Shown piece by piece: positions 4,986 to 12,890 of a stretch of DNA of 35,479 nt (positions are counted from its first letter, which is position 1; each line of letters opens with the position of its first letter). Location of the stretch: UHGV virus genome UHGV-0144289; one strand, given 5' to 3'. Below the pieces are notes generated by a model. That model was given only the letters and a program-made list of their open reading frames with translations, was not told the DNA's origin and ran no database searches. A program made the translations under genes and the position numbers. The DNA is from a virus.

Positions 4986-5309
4986 TTAAAACGGTACGTC
5001 GCTTTCTTCAATTGGAGAGTGATCGATGCACAGCAGCTGCTGAATCTGGTCTTCAATAACACCCAGCTCCTTCTTTGCTTCGGCAGAGATTTTCTCTTTC
5101 TTCGCACGAAGGGCATTAACCTGCATACCAATAATGTCGATTGGCTCTAAAGCTGGAATGGCAACCTCTACCGTTTTGGTAGTAACGAGGACATACAGAT
5201 CAGGGTATTGCTGTGACATGTCACAGGTGAATGAGTGATAAGACGTTGGTAGATATGGTTTGGTTGTGGCCATAACGTAAATAGTTACGGGGATGGTAAG
5301 CGCTTCCAT
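4986..5309 (-). CDS. Hypothetical protein, first gene of the leftward early operon
   Basis: 107-aa ORF with RBS AAGGAG 7 nt upstream of the ATG; no domain recognised. Confidence 0.6.
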   Translation of the reverse strand: MEALTIPVTIYVMATTKPYLPTSYHSFTCDMSQQYPDLYVLVTTKTVEVAIPALEPIDIIGMQVNALRAKKEKISAEAKKELGVIEDQIQQLLCIDHSPIEESDVPF

Positions 5310-5333
5310 AGCGACTCCTTGATGATATATACT

Positions 5334-5452
5334 CAGAGCCGATCAGCGGCTCTGTCGTTGGTCTTTCCTCGCTACAGGGTTGGTCCCCTGTAGCATTCTG
5401 GGCGGTTTGGTCACTGTCCCGGGTAAATTAGCCCACTTCGGTGGGCTTTTTT
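5334..5452 (+). ncRNA. Candidate small antisense RNA in the early-left leader (speculative)
   Basis: Possible extended -10 (TGATATATA, ~5323-5331), then two strong hairpins (5334-5354 and 5371-5394) and a textbook intrinsic terminator on the plus strand (AGCCCAC-TTCG-GTGGGCT plus six T, 5430-5452). No plus-strand gene exists here. Confidence 0.25.
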
Positions 5453-5527
5453 ACGCCTGAAGGTTGCCGGTCTTTCCCGGCTGTCAGGGTGGTCAGCCCC
5501 ATTGGTCTTTCCTCGTTACTGCGTGAA

Positions 5528-5560
5528 TGCTTTAAAAAAATGCCCGGGGCGCCCGGGCCA
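5528..5560 (-). terminator. Intrinsic terminator on the minus strand within the early-left leader
   Basis: On the minus strand: GC-rich hairpin GCCCGGGCGCCCCGGGC followed by TTTTTTT. Lies between the putative PL promoter and the first early-left gene, implying an antitermination requirement. Confidence 0.5.
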
Positions 5561-5748
5561 AGACTACACACAGCAATTCGTATTCGTTGCGGTCTTTCCC
5601 GCATGTCATCGTACTGTCGGCGACCCGAAGAATTCGCGCCCGTCTTTCCGGACTGTCAGAACTGTTTCTGAACAACTGCCGCGTGGTTAGTGCGTCTTTG
5701 ATGTGGTGAAGCATAACCAAAGGTATTTTTATTGGCAATGTTTTTTAC

Positions 5749-5760
5749 TAACAAAAGTTA
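5749..5760. promoter_or_regulatory. Operator-type site TAAC-AAAA-GTTA next to the putative leftward early promoter
   Basis: Same TAAC-N4-GTTA dyad as the two sites in the repressor/cro intergenic region. Confidence 0.45.
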
Positions 5761-5767
5761 ATATTAG

Positions 5768-5805
5768 AGGTGTAAAAAAAGGCAATGCATTGAAAACATT
5801 GCCTT
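5768..5805 (-). terminator. Terminator downstream of the repressor gene (hairpin AGGCAATG...CATTGCCT flanked by A/T runs on both sides; potentially bidirectional)
   Basis: 8-bp perfect stem with a poly-T tract on the minus strand immediately after the repressor stop. Confidence 0.5.
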
Positions 5806-5809
5806 TAAT

Positions 5810-6223
5810 TTATTTTTTTGGAGTGTTTTTTTTCTTTTTTACCAAAAGTAACTCATCAAACAATCGCTGGAATCCGTCAACTTTATCTTTCAACTCATTG
5901 ATATGTCTATCTTTTTCTGATTCAGGTAGAGAATCAAAAAGATCAAGCAGTAGCTTTTGGCGATCATCTAACCGAGGTAAAAGCTCTTCTGCCTTCAACG
6001 GTTCATCGCTATCGGTACCGTTAAGTAACCATGTCGGAGAGCAACGAAGAGCCTCAGCGAGAGAAAACAGATTTTGCCCTTTTGGGGTGTTAATACCTGC
6101 TTCCCACTTGTAAACGCTGACGCCAGATATGCCAACGGCATCGGCGAGCTGCTGTTGTGTCAAACCAAGCTCTTTCCGTCTCGATGTAATGCGATCGTTA
6201 AAGGTCAATTTTTTCATATCCAT
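5810..6223 (-). CDS. Prophage repressor, XRE-family helix-turn-helix protein with no recognisable autocleavage (peptidase S24-like) domain
   Basis: 137 aa; N-terminal HTH (LTQQQLADAVGISGVSVYKWEAG); divergent from the cro-like gene across an operator region; the C-terminal part is acidic/coiled-coil with a lysine tail and shows no LexA/cI-type catalytic signature. Confidence 0.8.
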   Translation of the reverse strand: MDMKKLTFNDRITSRRKELGLTQQQLADAVGISGVSVYKWEAGINTPKGQNLFSLAEALRCSPTWLLNGTDSDEPLKAEELLPRLDDRQKLLLDLFDSLPESEKDRHINELKDKVDGFQRLFDELLLVKKKKNTPKK

Positions 6224-6228
6224 AATAT

Positions 6229-6281
6229 AAGTTAACTTGACATAACTTTCGTTAGTATTTATGTTCCTAACTGACGTTAGG
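6229..6281. promoter_or_regulatory. Immunity switch region: rightward early promoter (-35 TTGACA 6237-6242, -10 TATGTT ~6260-6265) with two operator dyads TAAC-TTTC-GTTA (6243-6254) and TAAC-TGAC-GTTA (6268-6279)
   Basis: Dyads overlap the spacer and start region of the promoter that would drive the cro-like gene; the repressor gene starts divergently at 6223. Confidence 0.55.
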
Positions 6282-6291
6282 AGAGGAAACT

Positions 6292-6489
6292 ATGAAGACC
6301 GAAACTGTTATCAGATTTTTTGGAACTAAAACCGCTGTTGCGCGTGCATTAGGTATCTCTCAAGTCGCTGTAACCCGCTGGGGGACTGTTGTTCCTGAAA
6401 AGCGAGCTGCGCGACTTGAGCATGTAACCGCGGGCGCCTTGAAGTACGACCCTACTTTTTACGAAGAGCAAAACACGTCTAAAGCATAA
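6292..6489 (+). CDS. Cro-like / YdaS-like small HTH regulator
   Basis: 65 aa; HTH (TKTAVARALGISQVAVTRW); first gene of the rightward early operon, RBS AGGAGAGG. Confidence 0.7.
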   Translation: MKTETVIRFFGTKTAVARALGISQVAVTRWGTVVPEKRAARLEHVTAGALKYDPTFYEEQNTSKA

Positions 6490-6551
6490 CTACAGGCGTT
6501 ATCGAAATCTGATTACGCTTAATCAATTTTCAGCGACAGGAGACGCTCGAA

Positions 6552-6998
6552 GTGGAATACCTCGAAGAACTTAAACGAGAGATCTTTAACTGGGCAGCGG
6601 AAAGCGGGCAGGAGCTGGTTGCTATCGAGATAAGCCGCATGTGGTTTCGTCTTGGTGGTAATACCGGTTCGCTGAAGCTGCACCAGATCGAAGATGCAGA
6701 TGGAAACGCCGACTGGCGGGCAATCAACAACAACCGCCAACAAATTTTTCGTTGGTTGCGAGGCGAGACCAAAGCCGCGAGAGCCAAAACTCTGGCGCTG
6801 GTCAAAGCGATGGAAGCGGCGCTGCCGGCAGAACGTTACGCGCGCTTGGGTATGTCCACCCAGTATTTAATTTGTGTGGCCATTCGTGAGTTTGCCGCGG
6901 CGATTATCGCGTTATTACTCGACGCCAGAGACGGGCCGCAGCAAGTCGCCAGAGCATTGCAAGCTATGCGAGAAACACAGCGCCTGACCAGCGTTTAA
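6552..6998 (+). CDS. YdaT-like (CII-like) regulatory protein
   Basis: 148 aa, GTG start with RBS AGGAGA; position after the cro-like gene and the motif RWLRGETKAARAK are reminiscent of the Rac-prophage YdaT family (from memory). Confidence 0.45.
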   Translation: MEYLEELKREIFNWAAESGQELVAIEISRMWFRLGGNTGSLKLHQIEDADGNADWRAINNNRQQIFRWLRGETKAARAKTLALVKAMEAALPAERYARLGMSTQYLICVAIREFAAAIIALLLDARDGPQQVARALQAMRETQRLTSV

Positions 6999-12568: not shown

Positions 12569-12658
12569 GAATTCAATCGGATATTTTGAGATTTATTGTT
12601 GATTTTTAACGATTCGTGCTCTTAAAAATTTGCGCTCACTGTCAGTTGGTAGTATATA

Positions 12659-12678
12659 TACTGTAATTTTATACAGTA
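12659..12678. promoter_or_regulatory. LexA binding site (SOS box) TACTGTAATTTTATACAGTA
   Basis: Perfect CTGT-N8-ACAG dyad with flanking TA, matching the enterobacterial SOS-box consensus; located ~20 nt upstream of the RBS of the next small gene and overlapping a probable -10 (TATATA). Confidence 0.8.
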
Positions 12679-12698: not shown

Positions 12699-12890
12699 GT
12701 GGTTGATAAGAAAGACGCAGGAGACCTTCTCCCCGACGATGGTGATGTACTGATAACGTGTGAAAATGGGAAGATTAAGAAGACCAGAATTGTCCATTCC
12801 GATGAGCACGTAGCGACACTTAACGCGTTGTTTGAATTAGCTAAATTGACGGGTTATACCATTATCAAACCAGACGGCAATATGCTATAA
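12699..12890 (+). CDS. Small SOS-regulated protein, candidate antirepressor
   Basis: 63 aa from GTG at 12699 (RBS GAGGGAGAGG); the longer TTG-initiated frame from 12630 would run through the promoter/operator and is less plausible; AT-rich island. Confidence 0.5.
   Translation: MVDKKDAGDLLPDDGDVLITCENGKIKKTRIVHSDEHVATLNALFELAKLTGYTIIKPDGNML

Follow-up and report, generated by a model that had tools for sequence, protein, structure and literature searches.

The 35,479-bp viral genome UHGV-0144289, which in its full length we call the window, carries three exact copies of the dyad TAAC-N4-GTTA (TAACNNNNGTTA) in the rightward and leftward early promoter regions around a gene for a short helix-turn-helix (HTH) repressor. 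We propose, with a probability of about 0.86, that these dyads are the operators of a lambdoid lysis-lysogeny switch of the P22/DicA type. All three are very probably real binding sites of the short repressor and of the Cro protein encoded next to it. This reading rests on the pattern itself, on its overlap with promoters, on the homology and fold of the proteins, on conservation and covariation among related loci, and on the exchange of the entire cassette in a heteroimmune phage. The operator set belongs to the P22/DicA type and has a half-site previously undescribed; in other respects it is an ordinary example that calls for no new mechanism.

The dyads and a proposed five-site operator map

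The whole window was scanned for the motif, and exact matches were found at the three positions of the original prediction, 5749, 6243 and 6268, and nowhere else. All three lie within an 800-bp immunity cassette (Table 1). Shuffling of the whole window gave an expectation of 0.39 matches, and a count of three was reached in 1 of 100 shuffles. As a local control, only the two AT-rich non-coding stretches, one of 74 bp at the rightward operator (OR) and one of 110 bp at the leftward operator (OL), were shuffled with dinucleotides preserved. Two or more sites in the OR stretch arose in none of 200,000 such shuffles, and one or more in the OL stretch arose with P = 0.004.

Two of the dyads had been placed at the rightward promoter (PR), and this placement holds: one falls within the PR spacer and the other covers the predicted start, approximately 7 bp downstream of the -10 hexamer. 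The third had been placed by the leftward promoter (PL), which it does adjoin, but it is centered upstream of the -35 element and so lies off the promoter itself. The hexamers of PL are conserved in relatives. The count of three is correct for exact copies but leaves out two sites, OR3 and OL1, that each carry one mismatch in the core, for five in all. The sites are better described as five putative 18-bp elements of the form T(A/C)(C/A)TAAC-W4-GTTA(G/T)(T/G)A than as three dyads. OR1 is symmetric at 7/7 outer positions, and OR3 overlaps TATATT (6229-6224, minus strand), the candidate -10 element of the repressor-maintenance promoter (PRM). Centers are separated by 35 bp for OL1 and OL2, 20 bp for OR3 and OR2, and 25 bp for OR2 and OR1.

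Table 1. Predicted sites, promoters, genes and other features of the window
Feature	Coordinates	Strand	Sequence or evidence	Remarks
Immunity cassette	5700-6500			OL, terminator, repressor, OR and cro; swapped as one block relative to BUCT708
Candidate PL	5710-5738	-	TTGCCA (5738-5733), 17 bp, TATGCT (5715-5710); promoter scan 9/12	Predicted start near 5703
OL1 (putative)	5711-5728		Degenerate 18-bp GCATAAC CAAA GGTATTT; core 5714-5725 TAACCAAAGGTA	One core mismatch; over PL spacer and -10
OL2 (putative)	5746-5763		18-bp TACTAAC AAAA GTTAATA; core 5749-5760 TAACAAAAGTTA	Core exact; centered ~11 bp upstream of PL -35
Intrinsic terminator of repressor gene	5774-5806	-	Stem AAAGGCAATG/CATTGCCTTT, then minus-strand T-run	9-nt loop, beyond what the terminator scan accepts; read from sequence
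Immunity repressor gene	5810-6217	-	135 amino acids (aa) from conserved ATG 6217	In-frame ATG 6223 would give 137 aa
OR3 (putative)	6220-6237		Degenerate 18-bp CCATAAT ATAA GTTAACT; core 6223-6234 TAATATAAGTTA	One core mismatch; overlaps repressor start
PR	6237-6265	+	TTGACA (6237-6242), 17 bp, TATGTT (6260-6265); promoter scan 10/12	Predicted start near 6272; would drive cro and the ydaT-like gene
OR2 (putative)	6240-6257		18-bp ACATAAC TTTC GTTAGTA; core 6243-6254 TAACTTTCGTTA	Core exact; PR spacer, overlaps last 3 bp of -35
OR1 (putative)	6265-6282		18-bp TCCTAAC TGAC GTTAGGA; core 6268-6279 TAACTGACGTTA	Core exact; overlaps last base of PR -10 hexamer
cro-like gene	6292-6489	+	Pfam P22_Cro E 2e-21; PDB 1rzs (P22 Cro) E 1e-15	65 aa
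YdaT-like gene	6552-6998	+	Pfam YdaT_toxin E 3e-21	PHROG 'CII-like activator'
63-aa open reading frame (ORF)	12699-12890		GTG start, Shine-Dalgarno sequence ahead	Downstream of LexA-box match

A position weight matrix (PWM) was built from the 18-mers of relatives, with the window's own sites left out, and was used to score all positions of the window. The five proposed sites were the five highest-scoring positions. The exact sites took ranks 1-3, with OL2 at the top (24.0 bits), followed by OR3 and then OL1. Two other candidates were discarded. Between OL1 and OL2, the only near-palindrome that might have made a third OL site (ATTGGCAAT, around the -35 element) is off-motif, and a one-mismatch site at 5969-5980 within the repressor gene is not conserved in phage phiES15 and was treated as a chance match.

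Conservation and covariation with the recognition helix

Related loci were gathered from IMG/VR, GTDB, GenBank phages, E. coli genomes, and contigs with homologues from a search of 5.8 billion proteins. Class A was defined by the recognition helix S-[GS]-V-S-[VI]-[YF]-K-W-E and contains ten lineages, among which repressor identity falls as low as 50%: the window, two IMG/VR contigs (L006 and L008), phiES15, two E. coli prophage types, Serratia, Kosakonia and Citrobacter lineages, and a metagenome contig. Within this class 27 of 30 possible exact dyads are present, a figure that overstates independence, as many of these relatives are close kin and about 6-7 lineages are truly divergent. The exact dyad is found in 9 of the 10 lineages at OR1, likewise at OR2 and at OL2, with 13 variants of the N4 center and variable flanks. 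Positions relative to the cro ATG are held within narrow limits: -30 to -33 for OR1, -55 to -58 for OR2, and about -540 to -560 for OL2. At OR1 both 4-bp arms are kept in 9/10 lineages and the center takes at least 8 forms. The degenerate sites are conserved as well. All 15 unique OL sequences retain the OL1 pattern TAAC...G(G/A)TA, as do the Serratia, Kosakonia, Citrobacter and metagenome loci. The OR3 block ATAATATAAGTTAACTTGACATAAC shows no variation among 11 unique OR sequences, and the OR3 core is also retained in the more distant class-A loci L037-L040.

Other recognition helices are present at nine loci, with repressor identity of 40-62%, and the equivalent 650 bp of these loci contains 0 exact dyads. 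Dyads of the same geometry, two 7-bp half-sites around a 4-bp center (7-4-7), are present there with different letters. Classes C, DicA and HannyBb (5 loci) show 7-4-7 dyads at positions from -29 to -36, each with its own sequence, and class B (4 loci) has its clearest 7-4-7 dyads at OL and at the OR2-equivalent position (approximately -59). The dyad reads TGTTAGA-AAAA-TCTAACA in phage BUCT708, CCTTAGG-AAAA-(T/C)CTAAGG in PPompW and a Klebsiella phage, CATTGAG-AAAA-CTCAATA in HannyBb, and ACTTAGC-ATTT-GTTAAGT and relatives thereof in class B (Dickeya, Serratia and Salmonella). Comparison with phages carrying similar repressors had been suggested as a check on the original prediction, and it came out in its favor: the dyads are kept at fixed offsets, and in same-helix lineages only. 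In three related virus records scanned whole, the exact dyad is confined to the immunity region (3/3, 3/3 and 2/2). The phiES15 record has three exact dyads in the immunity region and two elsewhere with GC-rich centers.

Several single prophages depart from the pattern. The right arm of OR2 reads GTTGG in locus L010, and the left arm of OL2 reads TAAT in L004. In L031 the left arm of OR1 is gone, and the repressor of E. coli SE11 (L036) is annotated as frameshifted. Such lesions could be natural variants informative about the importance of the sites, or they could reflect prophage decay.

Exchange of the immunity cassette

Outside the cassette BUCT708 is about 90% identical to the window (about 87-100%). 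Sliding identity is 0.63-1.0 over 5300-5689 (0.80-1.0 at 5540-5689), falls to 0.70 at 5690-5719 and to 0.17-0.73 across 5720-6499, and returns to 0.77-1.0 from 6500 onward. The divergent block, running from OL through the repressor gene and OR to the end of cro, has the organization of a classical lambdoid 'imm' region. All five sites lie inside this block and have been replaced along with the recognition helices; BUCT708 has TTAGA-N4-TCTAA dyads instead, and no TAAC-N4-GTTA is found in its 43.9 kb. The C-terminal domain (CTD) of the repressor stays similar across specificity classes. The dyads had been put forward as a prediction of the immunity specificity of this particular phage. The link to specificity is supported by the covariation of helix and dyad and by the cassette exchange, but the specificity is that of a class common to several genera and is not unique to one phage.

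BUCT708 (our locus L001, OM816834.1) is recorded as 'Stenotrophomonas phage vB_SmeS_BUCT708'. By its repressor, Cro and operators it falls into an enterobacterial class, along with PPompW and the Klebsiella phage, and on sequence grounds a Stenotrophomonas host for OM816834.1 looks doubtful.

Homology and fold of the repressor

Pfam searches agreed with the gene arrangement assumed in the original prediction: a divergently oriented HTH_3 repressor, a cro gene of the P22_Cro family, and a YdaT-like protein in the position of a CII equivalent. A YdaS_toxin match was also found in the cro-ydaT early-right operon, in which the two genes stand in tandem as in operons of the CP-933P/Rac type. The repressor matched HTH_3 with E 4.6e-16 and HTH families only. 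The search returned no Peptidase_S24 or other peptidase family for it, the feature, with its Ser/Lys dyad and Ala-Gly cleavage site, by which an autocleaving repressor of the lambda CI/LexA type would be recognized. When the N-terminal 70 residues were compared with the PDB by phmmer, the matches were to the N-terminal domain (NTD) of P22 c2 (1adr, 2r1j and 3jxb, E 5e-13 to 1e-12). An AlphaFold (AF2) model with a predicted local distance difference test score of 85 gave the same result by Foldseek, the NTD superposing on 3jxb/2r1j at 0.6 Å with a template-modeling score of 0.93-0.96 and 42% identity. In the model the C-terminal part forms a helical hairpin, made of a helix at 85-95 and a long helix at 99-130, and the protein ends at residue 135. 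Matches to the full-length fold, with poor root-mean-square deviation, were to SinR and to phage repressors bound by small antirepressors. By tblastn, residues 1-126 are 39-46% identical to phage genes annotated dicA or DicA-like. Across 24 homologues from four specificity classes, the CTD motif LFDSLPESE...V..F..LF.ELL is fully or almost fully conserved.

The geometry of the sites fits that of P22. A P22 repressor dimer on its 18-bp site contacts positions 2-7 and 12-17 and leaves the central 4 bp uncontacted, with a preference for A/T centers (PMC4267663). In that frame TAAC-N4-GTTA occupies positions 4-7, 8-11 and 12-15. All five sites have an N4 center, and the centers are A/T-rich and vary between lineages, which describes sequence geometry and not contacts; half-site positions 8 and 9 are A/T in 41/48 and 45/48 cases, respectively. 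The residues that P22 c2 places at the central groove (E42, E44, N46 and E48) are replaced by I, T, K and Q here (repressor residues 42-48, window approximately 6074-6094), so readout of the 4-bp center may differ from that of P22. The K46 residue is kept in most class-A and class-B homologues.

Weighing of the alternatives

A number of observations weigh against the interpretation of the sites as operators, in addition to the close kinship of many class-A relatives. When any 4-mer dyad with a gap of 0-8 was allowed, a count of three was met in 159 of 5,000 shuffles (3.2%), and the signal within the sequence is therefore only moderately significant. Matches with one mismatch number 12 in the whole window against 9.2 expected, which is the chance level. 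OR3 and OL1 score 10.0 and 9.9 bits with the PWM compared to 8.5 bits for the best background position, a margin of approximately 1.5 bits. OR2 and OR3 lie within a 25-bp invariant block that includes the -35 element, so that promoter constraint could explain their conservation too. Class-B relatives have the same inner AAC-N4-GTT, and the immunity classes may be incompletely separate, with partial cross-recognition possible. In addition, only operator Oc was bound in vivo by DicA, and two other sites predicted from sequence were not (PMC3441716); not every predicted site need be functional. Finally, activation of PRM in the manner of lambda was considered and set aside, as a start at 6217 puts the center of OR2 near -32 and not -42.

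The first two of these numbers are what would favor chance palindromes in AT-rich intergenic DNA. It is the comparison among loci, rather than the statistics of one sequence, that is decisive for operators. The dyads stay in place even where repressor identity between lineages falls to 50%, are missing from all nine loci with other helices, and in whole virus records are restricted to the immunity region. Chance is effectively refuted by the lineage comparison and the whole-record scan, and we regard it as the least credible of the explanations. It is only slightly easier to credit that conservation reflects promoter architecture, or a host nucleoid protein such as IHF, Fis or H-NS acting on AT-rich DNA. 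The base composition is suggestive (29-31% GC at OR and OL in a window of 52% GC), as is the invariant block around the -35 element, and H-NS/Cnu acts at the dicA promoter (PMC3441716). However, sequence constraint is not usual in promoter spacers or initial transcribed regions, and at OR1 conservation is limited to the two 4-bp arms, with drift in the center and flanks. Change in the dyad and change in the recognition helix also go strictly together, in cassettes that are otherwise homologous and in the same hosts. Binding by IHF was rejected because the sites lack the IHF core WATCAA.

A further alternative is that the dyads are recognized mainly by the P22-type Cro, with the repressor using different or partly overlapping sequences. 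The Cro HTH segment ALGISQVAVTRWG is identical in the phiES15, E. coli, Kosakonia and Citrobacter class-A loci, and Cro thus tracks the dyad in the same way as the repressor helix. In prophage CP-933P, two kinds of repeat are present in the footprints and the exact sequence for each protein (PaaR2 and YdaS) was left open (PMC8630535), and YdaS, the partner of RacR, does not repress racR (PMC9638921). On the other hand, the 7-4-7 geometry fits the P22 c2-DNA complexes on which the repressor NTD superposes so closely, and OR and OL show no sign of a second family of repeats, no other dyad occurring there in more than one copy. In both P22 and lambda, repressor and Cro use common operators. The homologous DicA binds a positionally equivalent site, Oc (PMC3441716). 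We consider recognition mainly by Cro unlikely, although it is the strongest of the three alternatives, and favor operators used by both proteins.

Relationship to known switches

An experimental precedent is DicA of the Qin prophage of E. coli K-12, which binds Oc in vivo, a single A-to-C change being sufficient to abolish binding (PMC3441716). The published Oc sequence, TGTTAGT-CATA-ACTAACA, is found at the OR1-equivalent position of the DicA-type phage PhiR42_1, whose repressor is 46% identical to that of the window over residues 1-126 by tblastn. Judged by sequence, this position together with the homology to DicA identifies OR1 as the positional and geometric homologue of the proven operator of a homologous repressor. 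The two systems share a repressor of 135 aa with a conserved C-terminal helical domain and no Ala-Gly/S24 module, encoded divergently from a Cro-like gene; a 7-4-7 dyad between the -10 element on the cro side and the cro start; and a weak or non-consensus promoter for the repressor. DicA is antagonized by the small antirepressor Rem (bioRxiv 10.1101/2023.04.14.536235). The systems differ in half-site (TGTTAGT in Oc versus T(A/C)(C/A)TAAC here) and helix (SHVSVSQWE versus SGVSVYKWE), in partner genes (DicC and a CII-like gene versus a P22-type Cro and a YdaT-like protein), and in the number of sites, Oc alone being bound in vivo by DicA compared to two exact sites at OR and one at OL here.

With P22 the window shares the NTD homology, the Cro family, the 18-bp site with its A/T-preferring 4-bp center, and the sets of sites at both OR and OL. 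The P22 half-site ATTTAAG differs from that of the window at positions 1-3 and 7. The c2 repressor is a protein of 216 aa with an autocleaving CTD, whereas a short helical tail is found here, and N46 and E44, which in P22 act on the central minor groove, correspond to K46 and T44. P22 has six operators (PMC4267663).

CP-933P resembles the window in its short non-cleavable repressor (PaaR2), Cro-like YdaS and CII-equivalent YdaT (PMC8630535, PMC9986795). In CP-933P, as proposed for the window, operators are grouped both at OR and at a PL-like promoter, and the repressor gene is leaderless. CP-933P differs in its operators, palindromes of 18 bp with half-site GTTTAGTAA that occur four times at equal spacing, and in the toxin-antitoxin pair that follows paaR2. 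The footprinted YdaT operator of CP-933P, TTGATT-N6-AATCAA, lies between ydaS and ydaT (PMC9986795). The window has CTGATTACGCTTAATCAA, one mismatch from this sequence, at 6509-6526, between the cro stop and the ydaT-like start. A second such copy, CTGATTAGGCTTAATCAG, is present at 2044-2061 near the int/xis end. The CII equivalent may act on these two sequences as PRE-like and PI-like targets. The YdaT-like protein itself was rejected as the binder of the TAAC dyads, given that the known YdaT site is of a different sequence and has its close match elsewhere, at 6509-6526.

The Gifsy repressors GfoR, GfhR and GtgR are similar in size, approximately 136 aa, and have no autocleavage motif; they are induced through a small antirepressor gene behind a LexA box (PMC3121763), and the window has a LexA-box match ahead of the 63-aa ORF.

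A model for the switch and its induction

From these comparisons we infer how the switch may operate, including binding itself, the hierarchy of the sites, the oligomeric state of the repressor, PRM and its leaderless start, and the route of induction. The 135-aa repressor would bind each 18-bp site, by homology probably as a dimer held by its two-helix CTD, with one P22-c2-like HTH in each outer major groove (positions 2-7 and 12-17) and the central 4 bp uncontacted. Repressor on OR2 and OR1 would exclude RNA polymerase from PR and so keep cro, the ydaT-like gene and the replication genes off. OR3, predicted to be weaker and located over the repressor's own start, would make PRM autoregulated. 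On the left, a weak OL1 over the PL spacer and -10 element, perhaps helped by the stronger OL2 35 bp upstream, would keep the early-left operon off. The P22-type Cro is expected to act at the same sites with another order of preference. The terminator of the repressor gene is conserved in relatives and keeps the repressor transcript from running into PL.

No sigma-70 promoter for the repressor was found at the scan threshold on the minus strand of 6217-6300, the best guess being TATATT with a poor -35 element. In the window, phiES15 and the E. coli lineage alike, exactly 6 nt separate the end of this TATATT from the conserved ATG (6217 in the window), and there is no Shine-Dalgarno sequence. 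This arrangement suggests a leaderless message from an autoregulated PRM. Leaderless repressor messages are documented for lambda cI and CP-933P paaR2 (PMC8630535).

Since the repressor has no autocleavage domain, induction would probably depend on antirepression of the Gifsy type, through the small gene at 12699-12890. A LexA-box match (ATACTGTAATTTTATACAGTAT, 12657-12678) follows a promoter-like TTGCGC...TAGTAT and precedes this ORF. The encoded 63-aa product matches phrog_340, of unknown function, with E 5e-23 and the anti-repressor family phrog_4792 weakly, with E 5e-4. It is 76% identical in the heteroimmune BUCT708, and tblastn against phages returned only unannotated homologues. The ORF is a candidate for an SOS-controlled antirepressor that acts on the conserved CTD of the repressor.

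Other features of the window

The predicted PL transcript opens with about 60 nt (5640-5700; TCTGAACAACTGCCGCGTGGTTAGTGCGTC(T/G)TTGATG, plus strand) that are conserved even in the heteroimmune BUCT708 and in Salmonella class B, and DicA-type phages have a related CACCGCACGGTG...GTTCCGC block. This leader may contain a nut/put-like or other leader signal. An Rfam search over the window matched only three tRNA genes (151-449), with no match in the immunity region. The tRNA genes are at the left end of the window, beside the int/xis side of the prophage, and the cluster is probably the integration locus.

Implications for immunity among related prophages

We tentatively extend these observations to an 'immunity code' for repressors of the DicA/Gifsy type, a generalization that we think somewhat more apt to fail than to hold. 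On a fixed 7-4-7 frame, helix residues 32, 36 and 37 (P22 numbering) would set half-site bases 3, 6 and 7, and the CTD, as the target of the antirepressor, would remain constant. The pairs of helix and half-site observed among the loci are S-G/S-V-S-V-Y/F-K with (A/C)(C/A)TAAC, S-H-V-T-I-F-K with ACTTA(A/G)C, A-H-V-T-I-S-Q with (C/T)TTAG(A/G), S-H-V-S-V-S-Q (DicA) with TGTTAGT, and S-G-S-S-I-S-L with ATTGAG. If such a code is true, the immunity groups of thousands of enterobacterial prophages would be predictable from repressor sequence alone, and a single SOS-controlled antirepressor could induce several heteroimmune prophages together.

Our literature search found no operator-level description of this immunity class and no operator study of phiES15, which is a UV-inducible Cronobacter phage. 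The analysis provides a testable map, which comprises five sites with their promoters and marks exactly where the immunity cassette begins and ends. The map covers an immunity class present in at least six named genera (Enterobacter, Cronobacter, Escherichia, Serratia, Kosakonia and Citrobacter) and probably in Klebsiella. It links the little-studied DicA/Gifsy-type repressors to the P22 c2-DNA structures, and gives the proven Oc positional and geometric equivalents in 5 of the 9 loci with other helices. The map offers orthogonal repressor-operator pairs for laboratory circuits, and it aids the prediction of superinfection immunity and of cross-induction among co-resident prophages.

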